This document shows, one piece after another, positions 32,715 through 64,000 of a stretch of 64,000 nucleotides of DNA. The translations under genes and the position numbers were made by a program. The notes under the pieces are model-generated. The model was not told the origin of the DNA, searched no databases, and saw only the letters and a program-made list of their open reading frames with translations. This DNA comes from Podarcis cretensis (lineage: Eukaryota). The stretch's first letter is position 1, and each line of letters starts with the position of its first letter. The stretch lies in assembly GCA_951804945.1 (NCBI GenBank), contig OX638155.1:39990001-40054000 (forward strand), in the 5' to 3' direction.

Positions 32715-33320
32715 TGGGATCAGTTCCAATCTGTTGCCTCTGAGGATGTGGACAGGCTGCTTGGATGAGTGAAACCGACCACCTGTCTCCTTGATCCTTG
32801 ACTATCCTGGCTCATAAAAGCGAGCTGGGAAGGACTGGGTGATGGGCTTTGTGGGGTGGTGAATGCTTCCCTCTGTGAGGGAGCCTTCCCATACCCACTG
32901 AAAGAGGTGGTTATGAAACTGCTTCTTAAAAACTATCTTTGGACCCAGCCAATATGGCCAACTATTGCTCAGTCTCAAATCTTCCATTCCTGAGCAAGGT
33001 GATTGAGCGGATGGTCGCTGATCAGCTCCAGACATGCCTGCTGGATGCAGACCATTGGATCCTTCCCAATCAGGATTGATGATCTCCAGCAGGCAAAGGA
33101 CAAAGGTGAAAGCTCTTTCCTAGTTCTGCTGGATCTCTCAGCGGCCTTTGATACCATTGACCATGACATCCTTCTGGACTGTCTAGAGGAGCTGGGAGCT
33201 GGGGGCACTGTTATACAGTGGTTCTGCTCCTTCCTTCTGGACTGTGTCCAGAAAGTGGGGGGGGGGATGAGTGTTCAGACCCCTGGGCTCTCACTTGTGG
33301 GGTGCCTCAGGGCTCTGCCC
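32715..33320 (+). mobile_element. L2-clade LINE RT fragment
   Basis: Motifs PTTCLLDP.., DKGESSFLVLLDLSAAFDTIDHDILL...GGTVIQWFCSFL, CGVPQGS; interrupted by stops and frameshifts. Confidence 0.85.
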
Positions 33321-35236
33321 TTGCAGTGCCCCATACTACCTTTCACAATGTCCTTGATTGTCCCCAATTCTCTGGAGCTGATTAGGGAGGCTGCAGATGT
33401 GGATAGGGAATTACACAGATACATAGTGATCTGTAGGGAGATATATACAAGAGTCATGTATTTTGCGCAAGAACTTACTCATGCATCCACTATTTTCAAA
33501 GTTGCCTTCAGGGAGTGGTAATGTATTTTCTTATCCTACGGGAGCATTTTCCGAAAGTTAGCAAATAGGGCTATAATGCACCTGTGAAGCATTTTTTAAA
33601 AAAAGTATAATATTAATATTAAATGTGTACTGGATATGTGATCTGCAGTTTTGATTAAACCAATGAAGGCAAATGTATATATACATTAACAAACCAACTT
33701 TTCTACTGGGGTGGCACAGCCTACTTTCAGGTCATATTGCCATGCAATGTGTTTTATTTATTTATAACCACTCATTAGAAAAGCAATCCTTATGATTCAG
33801 ATCAGGAAAAGCCAAAGTCCTCCCCCATTCCACTCAAGAATACAGAGTGATCATTATTTCTTTTTCCTCATTATGAATGGCAGGCCAGGACATCCATGGT
33901 GGAAGAGCTCTCACACCATGCGAGTGGAGGAATATGCTTTCCTCTTCCTAAGCGTCTCCAGTGCCATGGATCAGAGGTTAGGATTGCACTTCTAACATAT
34001 TAAATGTCCCTCTAATGCCGGATATATGAAATAAACAGGAAAAACTGAACAACAATTTCTAACAGTATTTTGAATCAAGACTGATTTATCTATATTCAGA
34101 AGTCATAGATATAAATATATGCAATGGCGCTTGGATTTCAAAGAAATGTCAAAACATGAGTGATAAGCATAGATTTAACGTTTCCATTTCAGACAGAATT
34201 AATTGATTATCACAATGCCTCTGGTCTCCTTTTAAATATCCGTGTCCCAATCACTAGAATATAAATTGCCCATATAAACTTTCTACAATCTCACCTTCAA
34301 TCCCCACTTTTGAAATTAAACTATTCTATTCACACATTTCAGAAGAATGTCTGAAAGTGGTTAGATTTAAATGTAAATGAGCTGGGGCCATCATAAAATG
34401 GAATTTCATCAGAAGTTCATGAAATAGACACCTTGGAAAGTTCAGTTCAGCTGCTAAAAATGATCACACTATAGTTTTTGATAACCAGCTTAACCACCAA
34501 CATTGAAGCAGGACACAAATGGATTTTAGAAGTCAAACAGAAAACATGAAACATTCTGGTCCCAGTAAAGCATGCAGCTATGACAAAACTGTAAAGCAGG
34601 CCGTATGAAGTACAAAATGTATCTAGCATGATTACTTGCAAATGAACTGTTCCTATATCTAAATAAGATGTGTGGGCTCCAGGAGATGGGAGCTCGGAAG
34701 GACTGGTGAACTGGGAGAGCCTGCAATAGCCAGGAGACGAGAGTCAGAGGCAGGAGAAGCTGCAGGACTGGAGAGTGAAGAACAGGTGCAGGAGGAGGAA
34801 GAGACTGGTTAGACTGGTGTAGCATCAAGGGCTTCCACCCTTCCTTCTCCTGCCTCCACACATTGAGAGTCGGTGTAAAGACTCCACACATGTGCTTGCG
34901 GTCATAGGGAGGTGTCTGAAAGATGAGATGGGCGGGCACTGTGTACATGCGTATGGAGAGCCATCTCAGGCAGCCTTTCATTGTGGGAGCAACCTTATTT
35001 CTAGAGGAGCTGGGAGGGCCCTTGCGAATGCACATATACGAGTTCTTCTTGGGAAGGTTCTGGAGCCAGTGCATGCTCCCGTTACTAGATAGGCATGTTC
35101 TCTTTCTGTCTGTCTCTCCCTCTTTCCTGTCACTCCCCCTCCTCCTGGCTTTGGTGAGCGAGACTTTCCAGAGAGCTCTTCCTGCTCTCCCACCTAGCAA
35201 CCCCCAGAATTCGGCGCCCGGGTGCCCCACACCCCT

Positions 35237-44223: not shown

Positions 44224-44703
44224 CATAGAATCATAGAATCATAGAGTTGGAAGAGACCACAAGGGCCATCGAGTCCAACCCCCTGCCAAGCAGGAAACAC
44301 CATCAGAGCACTCCTGATATATGGTTGTCAAGCCTCTGCTTAAAGACCTCCAAAGAAGGAGACTCCACCACACTCCTTGGCAGCAAATTCCACTGTCGAA
44401 CAGCTCTTACTGTCAGGAAGTTCTTCCTAATGTTTAGGTGGAATCTTCTTTCTTGTAGTTTGGATCCATTGCTCCATGTCCGCTTCTCTGGAGCAGCAGA
44501 AAACAACCTTTCTCCTTCCCCTATGTGACATCCTTTTATATATTTGAACATGGCTATCATATCACCCCTTAACCTCCTCTTCTCCAGGCCAAACATGCCC
44601 AGCTCCCTCAGCCGTTCCTCATAAGGCATCGCTTCCAGGCCCTTGACCATCTTGGTTGCCCTCCTCTGGACACGTTCCAGTTTGTCAGTGTCCTTCTTGA
44701 ACA
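44224..44703 (-). mobile_element. 5'-truncated CR1 LINE, young
   Basis: Uninterrupted ORF2 end (LERVQRRATKMVKGLE...YEERLRELG.F.LEKRRLRGDMI...WNLLP...FKQRLD) and (ATTCTATG)n tail. CATCTTCAT occurs at both flanks (44218, 44704), a probable TSD. Confidence 0.95.
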
Positions 44704-45117
44704 CATCTTCATTTTGCTTTCATTTCAACCTGCAGTAGTGGTTGCTTTCTGGAACTATGGCTTTCTGACCAATATACTAGCACATCATGCTAAATTTCAG
44801 TCACACCTATGAGTGTGCTGTGACACACAACAAATGTCATTGGGCAATGTTGCTACTCTCTCACCCTTTCCATATGTGTGTGCTTCTTTTCCCTGTATGC
44901 TTTCTCCCATAAAATAGGCAGGAAAGAACTGTATGCTTGTCTACTCCCCCTAATTTTGTCACTTTACCCCCGTAGTTTTCTGGGTTAATGGATTTGCAAA
45001 TATTTTTTTTTCCCTGGAAGCAATTAACACGGAAATGAGCTCTCAACTTCCTCTAGATTCCCAGAAGTGGGATTTACATTGTGTGAAAGCTCAAATATAA
45101 TGTGGAAATTAAGAGTT

Positions 45118-47355: not shown

Positions 47356-48097
47356 TAAATTTGTCTTTTAGAAATTCCATAGTGAAAACTGTATCTTTAA
47401 TGATTAGGAGTTCATGGTGTCCTAAATGACAAACTTTTCTCTCTTTTGTGAATGCTCTTACAATAACATGCTTGTGCAGAACTCTATTTTGTAGGGGGGG
47501 GGGGGACATTTTCTATATGAGTGTATTCAAGAACTCACACCTAATCTTAATCTCACAAAACTAAGAGTCCTACCTGAACTTCTCTACTCTCAAATAGTCA
47601 TTTTAAAGTTTACACAAAGAAACTAAGGAGGGAAAATGGGTCTCTCAAATTGATTCATCCAAAGAACTTGTACATGGCCCTTCAGTCATGTATATATAAA
47701 TCATTCTCCACTCTACCTTTTTAAAACCCCTTTTGTAGCAAACTATTCAAAGACAGAATTTGTTGTTCTCCTTTCCCTCCCTTAATATCAACATTTATTC
47801 TAACTCTTCATTTTCTCCAGATTCCCAAAGACAAAAATAACTGAATTTATGAAAATGTTTTTTAAAAACTATTCAACCAATAGTTTTCCAACCAAGATGT
47901 ACTGAATGTGCTCTTCCAATATGTTTTTTCAGACTCCTAATAGTCTCCCATAGAAACCTTCACCCCGATATAAATACTAATTACATCTAGGGTCCCATGT
48001 GTTCTGCATATATTTAGGAAAGCATATTTAAAATAATTCTAAGGGATCTATAAACTTTTGTTGTGTAAACACACACTTCAGAAATATCTAAACATAC

Positions 48098-48214
48098 CTC
48101 TGCTTGCAAGTCCCAGATCTTCACAGGGTTCTGAGATTTGGGTCCAGTGTCTTCCTCTAAACTTTCTGTGATTCTTGTTACTTTAGTCTGATGTACATCA
48201 TTATGTATACTAAA
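48098..48214 (-). CDS. CCDC102B: CCDC102B coding exon 4 (117 nt; FSIHNDVHQTKVTRITESLEEDTGPKSQNPVKIWDLQAE)
   Basis: TTCTATTTTTCAG| acceptor, GAG|GTATGT donor, 39 open codons, phase 0/0. Ends IWDLQAE, compared with recalled human ICELRAE. Confidence 0.85.
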
Positions 48215-51200
48215 CTGAAAAATAGAAGTTGGCTCATCACTGAAATATTAGGATATCATCTGCAAGCATCATCTGAACGATATTCGCTAGATGGCTTAAA
48301 ACAGGGGTAAGGAAACAATTTTTTAGCCCTGAAGGCCACATTCTCTCATAGGCAAAAACAGGTTTGCTACATCTCAGTGGTGAACAGGTCCAGATGCAAA
48401 AGTAAACAGAGCAATGGCTGTGATGCTCACCTTTGCCCAGTAATTACATTCCAGCCATATAAAAGCCAGAGGTTTTAGGCACGCCCACACCCACATTCTC
48501 TGTACTTCTCCCTGACAAGCAAGCAAGAGGCACTGTTACAATGCAAGAACACATTCCAGCCAGGCAAAATCATTCAAGGAGGATGTAGCCAATAGGTGAG
48601 CATATGGTCAGGAGAGAATCTCTAGGGTGAGAGAGGCCTGGAGGACCAGCTTTGTTCCTCTGCCTGAGGTTACTCGCCTTGGCTTAAAATATGCTGCTAA
48701 ATAAACTCACTGGATTGTGACTCTTTATCTTAGCACATGAGCGGGATGATTAGGGAAACAGAAAGGAATGCAACATCACGCTAAGGAGATTGCTCCATCA
48801 GCACAAGTCTTTCTGCTTGCTTGGTAGAACGATCTCCCCTCTCTTCACCCTGTGCTCTGTTCTGGGGGGTTGTGCCCACTCTCCCAACCTAACCTGTGAA
48901 ATTATGTGGGGAGGAGGTGAGAGAAGGGGGAAGTCCCATCGTGCTAGTGGGAGTTCTTATGCTGCCTTTTGTAGCACAACGTCTTAGTTGAATCCTGCTC
49001 AAAGGCTGTAGCTCCTTCCCTGCATTGCATCTGTCATCACACTCCACAACCTGGAGCCTGAATTTCTGAAGGTAGAAGATACTATGAACATGAGGAGGTT
49101 TAAAACCTTGTTTTCCAGGGTTTTAAAACACACAAGGAGGTCTCACAAGTGTAGAACACTTAAATTCATACCACCACTGCAAAGCTTAGCATAGGCAAAC
49201 AGAAAACTCCAATTGTTATAGGCAATTATAGGCTGAAACTGTCACAAGGAATCACCCATTCTAATGTCACAGTTCAGCATAAACCAACACTACAACAGAG
49301 ACAAAGAGAAAATAATGAGTATTTTTTCAAGCACAATTTTATGGAAGGAATGATGATTTGCTGGGCCCATTCTTCTGTTTTGCCTCATTGACTCACAATA
49401 GCAAAATCCACATTGATTTTAATGAATGTGGATGGCCCCCTTTGAAAAGAACAGATTGGGAAAGCCAATCAAAAGTGCCAGGAGTGAAACTACTGTATTT
49501 TATTGCAAAATACAACATAAGAACAGATGTCAAATGCTTCAATTTGGGGCCTAGCTGTCTAAGATGGGCCAGTATAAAGTATTAGTCCAGAAATGCACTT
49601 AGCAATAAAAGCATTAAGTTCCAAAATCCTCTTATCAGCACTGGATTCTTCATTGTAAAAACTTGTAAAATCAGTGTATTTTTAAATATATATATTTATT
49701 TTTAAAGGTTTTAGCTTGCTTTGTAAACAAGATTTGCTTCTCAAAGTGGCTCGAGGCCATGTACAAATAGAAATCCATAAAATCTAGCAATAAAACTAGT
49801 TAAAACCATTAAAATATCCAATTCCACCTCAGGAAGATACACGCCAGCATACCACCAAAGTAACCCACCCAGCTCCACAGAACAGCATCCAATACCTTAG
49901 ACTGAGCTCCAAAGGCCATTGTGAAAAGTGGAATCTTTAAGACTCATTTAAATTTAACAAGGGAGGGGCTTGCCTGAGCTCACATGGAATCAGATTCCAT
50001 AACTGGAGAGCCACCAGTTAAAAGGGGTCAAAATTTTTACTTTTTACTTTCTCTTTTTTGGACTGCATAAATACCTAGGTTAGATTAACCATTAAGCAAA
50101 ATAAGCACATGCTTAGAGCATCAAAGGAAGGTAGGCATCAGAGGAATTTTCCATTGTCAGATTTTTAATGTTAATGGTCACATTGATGGTTTAAGAAGCA
50201 TTGTATACATGATGCTTGCAATAACAATCCATATCTATCCTGTCATTTCCCGTGAACATTTCTTATTTTTGATGTGTCTGCTGCCAAAATAGCTTTGATC
50301 CAAACTGAAGAAATAACGATGTAGCAACAATGTATACACAGCCTTAGTCTGTAATCTTGTGTGCACTGACTAAGCCTCATTGAACTTCCAATTGAAGCAA
50401 ATTCAGGATCAGGCCAGTAGGGTGTTACTTCTATGTGATGGAAAGATACTGTGAATGTACCCGGAACTGATTTAGTGGGGGTCATGTTATATATGCTATC
50501 AGGGATTTATCATTCCATTCTGCTATAACAAAGTTTTTCCACATAGTGAAGAGAAGAATTTCCATCACAGGAAAGCAAAAACCACAATCCCGTGTATCAC
50601 CTTGCTTCATCTAGATTGCTTTTGAGAACTTTGTGAATTTAGATTCCACAACTAGGCAGGGAAAGCTGGAGCCCCTGATGTTCATTCCAAATGGGATTTT
50701 TAAAGACTCATTAGCATGCTTTTCTAGTAGTTGATTGGATTATGACAGACGAAACCAGCAGGGGTGGCAGTGGTAATAGATTATACAAACTGTGTTCAAA
50801 ACCCTATGTAAATGGCAAAAATTGTTTTAGGCAAAGGGATTATAGCAATTATTTCTTCTAATTTAATTTGAAGTCTCCAAAGGGCAGCTGCTTTGGGGCA
50901 TTCTGAACCAGAAGATTTGACGTAAAAACACGAGCTTTCATCTCTTAATTTGCCTCAATGACATCCTAACTTTGCAGGAAGCAGAAAGAGTCTTTGCTAA
51001 TTCCCACATGTGTTTCAAGGTTTCACAACAGATATTTGGTTTACATTTCAAAGGATGGTGCCGTGCTTCCATCAAACGGAACGTTTTAACGGTACTTGAA
51101 ACCGCACTGTATTACTGTTGTTCGTTGCCCCTTTGCTGCAAAGGATGGGAATGTGACAGCGGGGTATGCTTGGTCTTCATGATTTGAAGTTGAGTTTGCT

Positions 51201-56092: not shown

Positions 56093-56151
56093 TAGAGCAA
56101 TATATGTAAAAAGCTGTGTTCAGATGATCATATCTTGGTTTATTACATTTA

Positions 56152-57533
56152 CCGTATTTTTCGCCCTATAGGATGCACTTCTTCCCCTCCAAAAATGAAG
56201 GGGAAATGTGGGTGCGTCCTATGGGGCGAATACAGGCTTTCGCGGAAGCCCGGGGAGCGAGAGGCTCTCGCTCTCCAGGCTTCAGGAAGCTCTGTACAAC
56301 CCTCCGGAGCCCAGTGCCAAGCCGCGCCGACCTCCAGAGGGTCGTGGAGAGCTGCCTGCGCTCCCGGGGTCCGCGCAGCTTTGCGCGACCCTCTGGAGCC
56401 CGGCGCCAAGCTGCGCTGGCCTCCGGAGGGTTGCGCAGAGCTGCCTGCCCTCCCGGGGTCCGCGCAGCTCTGCGCGACCCTCCGGAGCCCGGCGCCAAGC
56501 CGCGCTGGCCTCCGGAGGGTTGCGCAGAGCTGCCTGCCCTCCCGGGGTCCGCGCAGCTGTGCGCATCGCTCCAGAGCCCAGCGCCAAGCACTCCCGGGCT
56601 CCACGCAGCTCTGCGCAACCCTCCGGAGCCCGGCGCCAAGCTGCGCTGGCCTCCGGAGGGTTGCGCAGAGCTGCCTGCCCTCCCGGGGTCCGCGCAGCTC
56701 TGCGCGACCCTCCGGAGCCCGGCGCCAAGCCGCGCTGGCCTCCGGAGGGTTGCGCAGAGCTGCCTGCCCTCCCGGGGTCCGCGCAGCTGTGCGCATCGCT
56801 CCAGAGCCCAGCGCCAAGCCGCGCCGGCCTCCGGAGGGTCGCGGAGAGCTGCCTGCCCTCCCGGGGTCCGCGCAGCTTAGCGCAACCCTCCGGAGCCCGG
56901 CGCCAAGCCGCGCTGGCCTCCGGAGGGTTGCGCAGAGATGCCTGCCCTCCCGGGGTCCGCGCAGCTTTGCGCAACCCTCCGGAGCCCGCGCCAAGCCACG
57001 CTGGCCTCCGGAGGGTCGCGCAGAGCTGCCTGCCCTCCCGGGGTCCGTGCAGCTTTGCGCGACCGTCCGGAGCCTGGCGCCAAGCCGCGCCGGCCTCTGG
57101 AGGGTCGCGGAGAGCTGCCTACCCTCCCGGGGTCTGCGCAGCTTTGCGCGACCCTCCGGAGCCCGGCGCCAAGCCGGCCTCTGGAGGGTCGCGGAGAGCT
57201 GCCTGCCCTCCCGGGGTCCGCGCAGCTTTGCGTGACCCTCCGGAGCCCGGCGCCAAGCCGTGCTGGCCTCCGCAGGGTTGCGCAGAGCTGCCTGCACTGG
57301 GAAGCCTCAGCGCGCCCGGGCTTCGCACAGCTGTCCGCAATCCTGGGGAGACCGGCGCGGCTCCCTAGGCTTGCGGATAGCAGGCTCTTCTGGGGGCTGG
57401 GGTCGGGGAAACTCGGGCTTCCCCTGCGCCAGCCCCGTGCCTGGGGGGGAAATAAATTTTTTTCTTTATTTCCTCCCCCAAAAAACTAGGTGCGTCCTAT
57501 AGGGCGGTGCGTCCTATGGGGCGAAAAATACGG
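56152..57533. mobile_element. Tc1/mariner-superfamily (Tc2/pogo-like) non-autonomous DNA transposon with internal GC-rich satellite
   Basis: TIRs CCGTATTTTTCGCCCTATAGGA ... TCCTATGGGGCGAAAAATACGG, with TA duplication on both sides. Confidence 0.9.
56286..57295. repeat. 89-bp CpG-rich tandem array (~12 units, one truncated); each unit is a 70-nt inverted repeat plus a 19-nt linker
   Basis: Unit starts at approximately 56286, 56375, 56464, 56553 (short), 56605, 56694, 56783, 56872, 56961, 57049, 57138 and 57222. Confidence 0.93.
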
Positions 57534-57898
57534 TATATCCCAGCTGTCTTCTATAAGGGATCCCAATGCAGTGTACATATAGATCTGAGGCAGTAACTCT
57601 GACCTTCTAACTTTGACGCAGACACAGCTTCAGAAGGGTGGTGGACATGTGTTTTTTCAAACCACACCCTGGGTATAATTACTGAATTTTCCATGTTAAA
57701 TCAGACGGAAGGTGGGTTGAAAGCAGGGTAGGGCCTAGTCATGGAAATGTAATAAAACATGGAAGATGTATTCATTTCTACTTCGGCATAACTCATAATC
57801 TGCATCTTAGGTTTGTACGTATGGGAGAGCAAGACAACAAAAGAGAAGAAATTTATTTATTTTTCAGTTACCCATGGTAACTGCCTTTTGCAACCTAC

Positions 57899-58007
57899 CT
57901 GCTTCAGACTCTGCTGTTTGGACTTTCTTAGCTCCTCATATTTCCATTTCCACAGAATTTTTTCTGACTTCAGCTTCTCTATCTCTTTCTCCAGAGATAA
58001 GCGGATT
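57899..58007 (-). CDS. CCDC102B: CCDC102B coding exon 3 (109 nt; IRLSLEKEIEKLKSEKILWKWKYEELRKSKQQSLKQ)
   Basis: CTGCAG| acceptor and CAG|GTAGGT donor. Phase 2 to phase 0 matches the neighbouring exons. LEKEIE...LWKWKYEEL motif present. Confidence 0.93.
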
Positions 58008-58601
58008 CTGCAGTGTTACAAGAATGATAACAAACAATACTTTAAAATATTGCATGGGTTCCAGGACTATATTCTTCAAAATGCGGAAGGGTTTTGTTGC
58101 AGTTCTTGTGCTAGGGAGAATGGCATTTTCAAAAGCAATGGGCAGCCCAATCCTGCATCCAGGTAAGCTAAAGCATGTGCAGTTTTAATCCTAGTGGCTG
58201 CTGCTAGACCTAGTGGCTGCTGTTGTTGAAACACACTGGAAGAGGACAAAGGGCTTCTCCACACTTCCACTTGTCCCAGGGGAGCCAACTTGGGCCACAG
58301 GATGCTTTCCAAGATCTTGCGAAACCTCAGATGTTGCATGGGGGCCCTGCAGTGTGGGTGCACCCACAACAATGGTAGGGTGCTCTGGCACCCAGAGCCT
58401 CCTATAGTTGTTACCCCTGTGCCTTCCAAGCAGTTTCCCACTTGTCCCACTTGTCTGGGCATGGGTCCATGTGCTTTTGCCTTTGCCATGCCACTTTCCC
58501 CTGGAATACCTGCTCTTTTGCGATAGAGATCAGAACAAACCCAATCGCCATTTGTTCTGATGCAACGCTAAAGATCAGATTTCCCCATGGGATACTGAAT
58601 A

Positions 58602-60739: not shown

Positions 60740-60801
60740 TCAGGTGATTCACTTGTTTCCACACCTTAAGCAAAAAAGGAAGGCTAAATTTATAAACATA
60801 T

Positions 60802-61257
60802 TGTAATGGTTCTAGGGGTTGCTTGTGCGTAAGCAGGTACCTATCTCCCCGGCTGGGTGCAAACACCTGGCTGGGTTGCCAAAGTGAACCTTTTTCTGTC
60901 CGGACAGCCACTCACCCATGGCTGACTCAATCCCTGGCAGAATCCGTGAGTGGGCGTTTCTTAAACTTCTTCCAGCAAAGAAGTTCTTTGACGCCTTGTC
61001 TCCGCCTACCCTCTCTGCGCGGAAGCCTTCTGCGCAGGGAGGGCGTGGGCAATGGAGGACTCCTACTCTCCCCGCTGGACCCAGGCAAGAAGTCATGAGG
61101 CCGCCTCGCCACTTCCACCACCTGCCCCCCTTCTCCACTGGTGGTACGCTGATTCTCTTCCCCAGAAAATGGGCTGCTCCTCCCGATACCTGGGCGCTCT
61201 CTGGAATCCCTCTGGCTTTTGCTCTCTCCCTCCAGTACTGATGGCAGTTCCCTGACA
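60802..61257 (-). repeat. 3' LTR of the gypsy element (456 bp, TGTCA...TTACA)
   Basis: TG...CA termini on the minus strand, directly preceded by a polypurine tract, with an abrupt GC-to-AT transition at 60801. Confidence 0.85.
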
Positions 61258-61271
61258 TCCACCCCCACCTC
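61258..61271 (-). promoter_or_regulatory. polypurine tract (PPT) GAGGTGGGGGTGGA
   Basis: Purine-rich run abutting the LTR's 5' TG. Confidence 0.8.
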
Positions 61272-61438
61272 AGGACCACCCTCACCCCTGGCACGATCTT
61301 CCGATACCTCCTCCTCGACTTCATCGACCTCATCTTCTGAGGATTCAAAACCGGCCTCCCATCCCCTCCAGCTGGTCGAGCCTCCCAGTTTGATTCTTCT
61401 CCCTCGGACACCTCCCCCTTCTCCTCCTCGGAGGCAGG

Positions 61439-63016
61439 AAACCCCACAAAGTCCCCTTCGTCGTCTGTGGTTCCGAATTCTTCCTCCCAGAATCTAGCTA
61501 GTGGTTTAGGTCTATCCGGGAATAAACTATGAAACTCTTCCACCAGATACCCGTCCATGATTGATTCCGCAGGGACCCAAGTGCTTTCCGACCTGGGTTC
61601 TCCCTCCCAGGCTACCAGGTACTCTACCTGGTGACCCCGCCACCTCGTATCGAGTATTTCCGTGGCTTCATTACAGAGTGCCCTCTCCTCTACCCGCGGA
61701 TGGGTGGTAACCCCTCCCTCCCTTCCTGGGAATTCCTGCCCCTCCCTGTACTGTGAGAGTAGGGACCTATGGAACACCGGATGTATCTTCATGCTATTGG
61801 GCAACTTGAGTTTGAACGCCACTGGGTTCACCTGCTGTATTACCTCAAAAGGCCCCAGTCACCTAGGCTACAACTTCTTGCACCCTCCCTTTAGGGGCAA
61901 CCCTTGGGACGACAACCACACCCGGTCTCCCACCCGTATGGCCTCCCCCTCCTGACGGTGCCTGCCTGCCTGCCTCTTGTAAACTTCCTTAGCCCTCTCC
62001 AAGTTCAGCCTGAGTTGCTGGTGTAAGGCCTCCATTTCTTCGGCAAATTGCTCGGCCGCAGGTACACTCCATCCTTCTTCCCCCCTCCCTGGGAAGGCCC
62101 TGGGGTGACACCCGTAATTGGCCATGAAAGGGCTCGATCCCGTGAACACGTGTTCAGCGTTGTTGTACGCAAATTCAGCCAAAGCCAATTTCTCTACCCA
62201 ATCGTTCTGCCTCTCGCTGACATAGCAGCGTAGGTACTGCTGGAGTATACCGTTCGCTCTTTCGGCCTGCCTGTTGGTTTCTGGGTGCCGTGCCATCGAG
62301 AAGCTCACCTCGACCTACAGCAAGCTCATGAGCCTCCGCCAGAACTGGGAAGTAAATTGTTTTCCGCGATCTGAGATTACCCTCATTGGGGTGCAAAGCT
62401 GCCTGAAAACGTGGTCCTCAAACAGCCTGGCTGTCTCCTCTGCCGACATTGCGTGCGAACATGCTACGAAATGGCACATTTTAGTCAGCAGATCGACCAC
62501 CATCATGACCGCTGTCTTCCCCCTTGACTTGGGCAGAGCTGTCATAAAATCAATGGACACCACCTCCCAGGGCCTTTCCGGTGTTGGTAAGGGTTCCAGT
62601 AACCCTGCGGGGGCGGTCCTTTCCCCCTTTGCCCTCTGGCACTGGTCGCACCCTCGTACATATTCTCGTACGTCCGCCCTCACCTTTGGCCACCAGAATT
62701 GCCTGGTAACTAGTAGCATGGTCTTGTGCTGTCCAAAGTGCCCAGCTGTTGGATTGTCATGGAGCTGCCTCAGTATTTTGCCCCTCAACGTCTCTCCTGG
62801 TACATACAGCGCCCCCTTGTAGTACAGTAGCCCTTCCTTTTCCGAAAACCCCCCATTGTCTCCCTTTCCACCTCTGAGCTCCCTGATTTTAGTCTGAGCA
62901 AACTCATCGTCTCGGGTGAGCCCTGCTAGCTCTCGTTTACCTACCAACGTTCCCCCACCCACCCACCGGTCCTCGGGGAACACGGGCCTGGCCTCCAGAG
63001 GCCCTTTCCCCTCCAT
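61439..63016 (-). pseudogene. gypsy integrase (HHCC, DDE core, GPF, chromodomain, acidic tail)
   Basis: Motifs LHDNPTAGHFG...CDQCQR, SIDF, ISDRG, QAERAN, LGPF, IHPVFHRSLL, EILDTRWRGHQVEYLVAWEG...STWVP. Confidence 0.95.
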
Positions 63017-63019
63017 GTA

Positions 63020-64000
63020 TTCCAGTTTTCTGGAGAGTGCATCCGCCCTAACATTTCCCCCCCGGCACGTATTGTATCTTGAAGAAAAACTTGGTGAACT
63101 CCTGGAACCATCTGATCTGTCTCTAGTTAAGCACTCGCGTGGTCCGCCAGTATTCCAAGTTCTTGTGGTCAGTTCGGACCTGGATCTTGTGCCGCGCCCC
63201 TATCAAGAGGTGTCTCCATTGACGAAATGCCAAGTAAATCGCAAGCAGTTCTCGGTCATACACTGTGTAGTTTTGCTCCGACTTACTCAGCTTCCGGGAG
63301 AAAAAGGCGCACGGTTTTCAGTTCTCCTTGGACCCGGGTTGCAACAATACTGCTCCAATGGCGCGGTCGGACGCATCTGTCTCCAGTCTCATGGGCTTCT
63401 CCGGATCCACGTGCAGGAGCTGCTCTTCCGAGGCGAACGCCTTCTTCAATTTCTCAAAGGATTGCTGCGCCTCCTCTGTCCATGTGAACTTCTTTTTACT
63501 ACTAAGACAATCCGTAATGGGTGCTGTCAAGTGGGCGAAGTTCCTTATGAACTTCCTGTAGAAGTTGCTGAAGCCTAGGAACCTCTGCACATCCTTTCGG
63601 TTTTTGGGGGCCTTCCATTCCAGCACTGCCTTCACCTTGCCTGGATCCATGGCCAGTCCCTTGTCTGACAACCTGTATCCTAGGAACTTGACCTCCCTAG
63701 CATGGAATTGGCATTTTTCCAGCTTGACCCACAACTGATACTTCTTCAATCTCTGTAGCACCTCCCGGACGTCCTTGACATGTTGCGCTTCATTCTCCGA
63801 ATATATTAAGACGTCATCCAAAAAGGCCATGCAATTCTTGTACAGCAGTGGCCCCAGCACATGGTGCATGAAGGATTGAAAGCAGGCGGACCCCGATTGT
63901 AATCCAAATGGCATAACTAAATACTCAAAAGCCCCCAGGTGGGTGAACATGGTCGTTTTCCATTCGTCCCCCTCCCGTATTCTAATCAGATTGTATGCCC
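63020..64000 (-). pseudogene. gypsy pol: reverse transcriptase and RNase H
   Basis: Motifs FEYLVMPFGL, AFLDDVLIYS, KCQF...[51 protein letters not shown]. Confidence 0.95.

Follow-up and report, generated by a model that had tools for sequence, protein, structure and literature searches.

Among the closest described systems are the Xmix MITE with its Xstir tandem repeat and the Tc1/mariner MITE miDNA4, both of Xenopus, i.e., non-autonomous elements with terminal inverted repeats (TIRs), in which an internal unit is present as a monomer or as an array of variable length; according to the available text of two reviews, stem-loop- or microhomology-driven expansion was proposed for them (PMC12628747, PMC9659126). 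Likewise, shared ends, diverse interiors and inter-element recombination characterize the non-autonomous hAT and Tc1/mariner families of Anolis carolinensis, in the available text of which report the words "palindrom", "hairpin" and "pogo" are absent (PMC3014272). Another relevant system is the hairpins created and maintained by template switching, in which several sites change together with compensation and loops are inverted, while stepwise intermediates are missing. As presented in the accessible part of that work, loop inversion combined with compensation is the strongest sign of template switching (PMC8794818). The word "transposable" does not appear in the same accessible text, which concerns microRNA and rRNA genes.

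In this work, a 64,000-nt window of the Podarcis cretensis genome (contig OX638155.1, positions 39,990,001 to 40,054,000) was analyzed, and a TA-flanked element of 1,382 bp (positions 56152-57533 of the window) was characterized together with its genomic family. The element is a young non-autonomous TIR DNA transposon (MITE) of the pogo superfamily with an internal tandem array. In comparison with the Xenopus elements, the unit of the lizard family is itself a 30-bp palindrome, dozens of hairpin modules and array periods are present, the likely partner is Passer (pogo), and free satellite DNA was not seen among 40 scored candidates. With Passer (pogo, DD35D), the family shares the TA target-site duplication, TIRs shorter than 30 nt and homologous ends, but the MITE lacks a transposase and its interior does not represent a deletion derivative, and its ends are only 74-84% like those of the Passer copies found. 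Loop inversions, which are rare in the microRNA and rRNA genes of PMC8794818 as far as its available text goes, are frequent in the present MITE family. A literature search gave no account of the lacertid family or of compensated, flipping palindrome chains in MITEs; Repbase and Dfam were outside this search, and the family may be catalogued there.

Structure of the element and its location within CCDC102B

The features of the element are summarized in Table 1. Most of the anatomy given in the preliminary description, which was made from the sequence of the window, was confirmed: the TIRs are of the pogo type, 27 nt long and flanked by TA at both ends (56150-56178 and 57507-57535), and each unit is composed of a 24-nt arm, a centre of 8 + 6 + 8 nt, a 24-nt reverse-complement arm and a 19-nt linker, while for the approximately 11 repeats we counted 11 full units and one half unit. 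The right subterminal region, located within the right body, is homologous to the end of Passer other than that matching the left one. The open frames found in the element are exclusively repeat-derived and GC-rich, and do not encode a transposase; the long ones spanning the array were dismissed as a by-product of its 76% GC.

Table 1. Features of the MITE and of the surrounding CCDC102B intron (positions within the window).
Feature	Position	Strand	Remarks
5' TA target-site duplication	56150..56151		
Left TIR	56152..56178	+	27 nt; 2 mismatches to right TIR
Left subterminal region	56179..56285	+	homologous to one Passer end; extra copy of 17-nt TIR-like motif; family-wide first hairpin
Tandem hairpin array	56286..57295		11 full units (89, 88 or 84 nt) and a 52-nt half unit
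Full units (starts)	56286, 56375, 56464, 56605, 56694, 56783, 56872, 56961, 57049, 57138, 57222		unit at 56961, 88 nt; unit at 57138, 84 nt
Half unit	56553..56604		52 nt; without right arm
Higher-order duplication within array	56361..56820		230 bp; 6 differences
Right body	57296..57506	+	short hairpin modules, including a 48-nt homologue of the array unit
Right TIR	57507..57533	-	17-nt motif doubled at 57489-57523
3' TA target-site duplication	57534..57535		
CCDC102B coding exon	57893..58009	-	tblastn, 95% identity; limits approximate
CCDC102B coding exon at the other end of the intron	48095..48226	-	limits approximate

The Podarcis muralis CCDC102B protein matched minus-strand exons at 60736-59839, 58009-57893, 48226-48095, 41662-41450 and 9671-9498, and identity was 97% for the exon at 60.1-60.7 kb. 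Since exons of this gene lie on the minus strand on both sides of the element (58009-57893 and 48226-48095), the intronic location within CCDC102B, claimed previously, was corroborated, and it follows that the pre-mRNA carries the minus strand of the element. In the direction of transcription, the exon at 57893..58009 is situated about 360 bp upstream of the element.

Size and diversity of the MITE family

The 1.5-Gb genome contains 675 occurrences of the exact 41-nt left end, 4,452 matches to the exact 17-nt end (compared with 1 for a control) and 129 matches, at no more than 2 mismatches, to the subfamily marker. The copy sample consisted of 100 loci, namely those heading the list of 675 left ends (48 on C1 and 52 on C2). 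Both ends were present in 90 of these copies, which have a median length of 570 bp (range 153-1,375), and the 1,382-bp copy analyzed here is among the longest seen. TA was found at the end in 86 of the 90 two-ended copies (the 5' TA was built into the search pattern). The survey bore out the earlier view of a mobile element with a varying number of units (1 to 12 per copy). It should be stressed that only 16 of the 90 two-ended copies match the unit (seven with one unit, four with two, and five with 6-11); the remaining ones carry other GC-rich hairpin chains, often in tandem. In total, 47 of the 90 contain an internal tandem array of one kind or another, the periods ranging from 52 to 129 nt.

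For the hairpin survey, the first 60 copies were reduced by seven lacking the second end and three with nested insertions, which left 50. Applying a strand-symmetric definition, hairpins were found in 48 of the 50 interiors (mean 4.2, as compared with 0.05 in shuffles); they fell into 51 sequence clusters and ranged in length from about 30 to 120 nt across the family. Short copies that are poor in hairpins or devoid of them also occur (L072, L081, and L104). As hairpin chains and other tandem periods pervade the interiors, the 89-nt array is the long end of a family-wide design, in which the length of the hairpins is not kept at that of pre-miRNAs. The seven loci of the first sample without a second TIR were considered as autonomous elements, but this was rejected, as they are truncated or diverged MITEs. 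Several nested insertions were also observed, i.e., a Passer fragment within a MITE (L166, 2700-4082), a MITE within the interior of another MITE (L075), and unrelated repeats inserted in the MITEs L084 and L064.

Relationship of the MITE with Passer transposons

Screening of the genome for the DDE_1 domain resulted in 119 matches, and 50 loci were examined. None of the 30 best loci had a TIR matching that of the MITE, and the candidate partner was found among 20 weaker, broken loci. The broken copies L155, L156, L160, L163, L165, and L166 possess TIRs related to those of the MITE, and their ends are 74-84% like the MITE's (84% identity between positions 1-80 of the MITE query and L165). Frames of this group gave matches to BrkDBD, HTH_Tnp_Tc5 and DDE_1, and 35 residues were counted between the last two aspartates in L166; such frames with a DD35D signature represent the Passer architecture, as outlined in the available text of two reports (PMC7386202, PMC9976928). 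The MITE itself has the TA duplication and the TIR of less than 30 nt by which the Passer lineage is defined. An intact Passer with TIRs identical to those of the MITE was not found among the loci examined, and beyond the ends no counterpart of the MITE interior was detected in the Passer copies. Based on this sequence comparison, the MITE was likely moved by a Passer transposase.

The locus L166 was also considered as a deletion intermediate, which was rejected, as its transposase fragment lies nested within a MITE. Another family of broken DDE_1 loci (L151-L154, L157-L159, and L161), whose members are 88-97% alike over up to 3.4 kb, lacks the TIR of the MITE. Moreover, some ten long DDE_1 frames, open over 533-753 aa, are clustered at C2:117.9-119.2 Mb of the same genome, possibly representing an expansion of domesticated pogo-type genes.

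Age of the insertion and decay of CpG sites

When the non-array parts of 28 subfamily copies were compared with the majority sequence, CpG sites turned out to be 7.7% diverged and non-CpG sites 2.1%, i.e., within the subfamily CpGs decay 3.6 times as fast as other sites. The CpG observed/expected ratio amounts to 0.84, as compared with 0.33 for the window, which agrees with the description of CpGs as largely intact. They look intact because the copy is young, and they decay like methylated DNA.

In organism B (three runs of two samples), the flank contigs run into the TIR. The flank contig of organism C ends at position 57534 with 57 unaligned letters, and this number, in an agreement by length only, equals the distance back to the upstream TTG microsatellite in the case of an absent element. 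An empty orthologous site in organism C is thus probable.

Folding of the array

Isolated intact units fold far beyond chance, with z-scores of -9.5 on the plus strand and of -6.2 and -7.3 on the minus strand (0 of 200 shuffles in each case), and the decayed unit at 56783 does not (z = -1.2). The stem of about 31 bp with a 6-nt loop, reported earlier, is correct for the plus strand but not for the pre-mRNA, which carries the minus-strand hairpin; isolated intact units form on that strand 29-30 pairs with a 6-nt loop and a broken inner stem. Overall, 25-30 pairs and a 6-nt loop were noted in five minus-strand units checked. In the fold of the whole array, most arms pair with those of other units and the linkers are 43-71% paired. 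Folding of both strands, suggested as a check in the preliminary description, therefore upheld hairpins beyond chance for isolated intact units, but in context only 3 of the 12 units fold on themselves, as judged with an equilibrium model (co-transcriptional folding could favour local hairpins).

Covariation between hairpin arms

Two tests of covariation were performed. For the test within the subfamily, 31 pairs were scored in 210 units belonging to 43 of 100 distinct elements, and the cells are not independent events. It was revealed that double changes do not exceed expectation (58 observed and 69.8 expected) and that the mismatches G·T and A·C are almost equally numerous (367 versus 354). 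The G/A-T/C arm site noted earlier lies below independence (29 double changes versus 37.5 expected), and there is one single pair, 31/40, with an excess (8 versus 2.2, p = 3 × 10−4), which counts against the explanation that we favour.

Between homologous module variants, the changes were placed on a spanning tree. Its 13 variants were drawn from 127 modules of 51 elements, a variant being admitted with 3 or more copies in 2 elements. Double changes in the same column were in excess (15 versus 5.4 expected, p ~5 × 10−5); eight of these 15 were fully compensated, including six transversions, and 39 single, uncompensated changes were present alongside. The G·T and A·C counts were equal at the variant level (13 versus 13, for one module class only). 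Compensation was easier to find because modules were included when at least 11 of 19 arm positions matched; one variant was offset by an indel. When 50 family copies were pooled, G·T prevailed over A·C (247 versus 169, nominal p = 1.5 × 10−4, in cells that are not independent), and this lean could mean that the structure of one strand matters. Hence, the covariation proposed as a test in the preliminary description is absent within the subfamily and present between variants, where it is accompanied by flipped centres, and its meaning is ambiguous because template switching yields both covariation and flipped centres without selection. Compensation by itself does not exclude selection on the element.

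Inversion of centres and shuffling of units

Modules with a 22-nt centre numbered 18, and in 20 of their 153 pairs the match improved by three or more sites after reverse-complementing one of the centres. For example, the number of differences falls from 8 to 2 for L064/L078 and from 7 to 3 for L082/L113, the outer context of the latter pair being unflipped; both loop orientations occur within the single element L113. As the flanks are palindromic, it is not always possible to distinguish inversion of the loop from that of the entire module, and both are inversions between the arms. The order of units, defined by non-CpG sites, differs in all 28 of the 28 copies with at least four units, which share a pool of variants, and units are about as distant within elements (12.6%) as between them (13.2%). 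Variants of the left and right arms are unlinked (p = 0.27-1), and two left-arm sites are linked (p = 2 × 10−7).

Template switching in DNA copying fits this pattern better than does selection on RNA. We consider it fairly probable that the element is a young pogo-superfamily MITE, likely moved by Passer, and that its array is a cargo, likely without an RNA function, which template switching and unequal exchange likely built, re-perfected and reshuffled. A copy would be gained via repair synthesis at the donor site, during which the nascent strand could fold back on the palindrome, with one arm being copied from the other or the centre being flipped. Slippage between units or unequal exchange would change their number and order, and after insertion the resting copies would decay neutrally like ordinary methylated DNA. 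Earlier reports describe, in their available text, gap filling together with fork switching for elements with TIRs (PMC8277862), and microhomology deletions (PMC3814204). On the assumption that the rewriting is tied to transposition, we would locate it in donor-site repair after excision. In the resting copies template switching must be rare, because an excess of arm-to-arm correction is missing among individual copies. Only tentatively, and with more doubt than belief, one may go further and suppose that each round of Passer-driven copying re-perfects the arms, flips the loops and reshuffles the units, in the manner of a self-editing hairpin factory, and that perfect palindromes may boost copying. 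If this were true, thousands of copies would document, as a natural archive, how template switching mutates the germ line of a vertebrate, and they would show RNA-like covariation without RNA function, with ready-made hairpins scattered through introns.

Alternative explanations of the hairpin array

Another explanation is element-level selection on the hairpin chain, i.e., folded or cruciform DNA would aid excision, repair-copying or access of the transposase, and perfect palindromes would out-amplify others. The presence of hairpins in 48 of 50 interiors (mean 4.2 versus 0.05, in 51 clusters), the retention of pairing while the sequence changes, and an interior without a detected counterpart in Passer beyond the ends are consistent with it. 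However, short copies poor in hairpins or free of them exist (L072, L081, and L104), degenerate unit variants are common to several copies and hence were transposed, and template switching produces the same pattern without selection, which renders the selective explanation rather unlikely. We regard as far less credible still the idea that free satellite DNA starts from the array, or that the array was itself acquired from a satellite. The MITE-borne repeats Xstir and miDNA4 of Xenopus gave rise to satellites, according to the available text of PMC12628747 and PMC9659126, and the unit number here reaches 11-12. Nevertheless, the satellite seeding considered in the preliminary description was not borne out, as no free satellite was seen among the 40 matches scored of 3,463 candidates, and a TIR was present, at one end or both, in all 30 loci fetched from the best matches, none of which had more than 11 counted units. 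Furthermore, sister subfamilies contain homologues of the unit as single-copy modules, and the unit thus arose inside the MITE.

The remaining alternative, which we find improbable, is that Drosha and Dicer process the intronic array into small RNAs, or that the array is a site of ADAR editing affecting CCDC102B. Taken singly, the units form highly stable hairpins some 70 nt long, and TE-derived hairpins resembling small-RNA precursors are known, as stated in the accessible part of PMC3495686. As the array is extensively paired, with 70-100% of the arms predicted to be paired on either strand, incidental editing or low-level siRNA is plausible. On the other hand, in the equilibrium fold of the whole array self-pairing (P above 0.5) occurs in only 3 of 12 units on either strand, the flanks are about half paired, and the loop has only 6 nt. 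Processing of microRNA precursors is associated with a basal UG, an apical UGU and a CNNC motif. The basal UG and the apical UGU are absent in all five minus-strand units checked, and CNNC-like words, which occur in the units, are common anyway at such GC content. Within the subfamily there is neither covariation nor a G·U strand bias, the young insertion is probably missing from organism C, and no match was found in the window with Rfam at gathering thresholds. Given a hairpin length that varies from about 30 to 120 nt across the family, and the lack of arm compensation, of G·U bias and of an Rfam match, the reading of the units as pre-miRNAs is not supported.

Significance of the family and surroundings of the insertion

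The CCDC102B locus represents an ordinary young insertion, and the family is more useful. Dense compensated stem changes and loop flips in neutrally decaying DNA call for caution in the recognition of functional RNA from covariation. The family constitutes a many-copy test bed for the question whether template switching is tied to transposition, and it could also serve as raw material for intronic microRNAs or editing sites.

As regards the surroundings of the element, the match to CCDC102B is interrupted at residue 192/193 (window 60161-60057) by a gap of about 100 bp, into which the frame continues and which is possibly a very short intron. The first matched coding stretch of this gene is adjoined by broken minus-strand frames (60800-63600) that resemble integrase, RT/RNase H and chromodomain sequences and presumably belong to a Gypsy-type LTR retrotransposon. 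Fragments at 44229-44719 and 33003-33521 presumably correspond to the ends of LINE reverse transcriptases.
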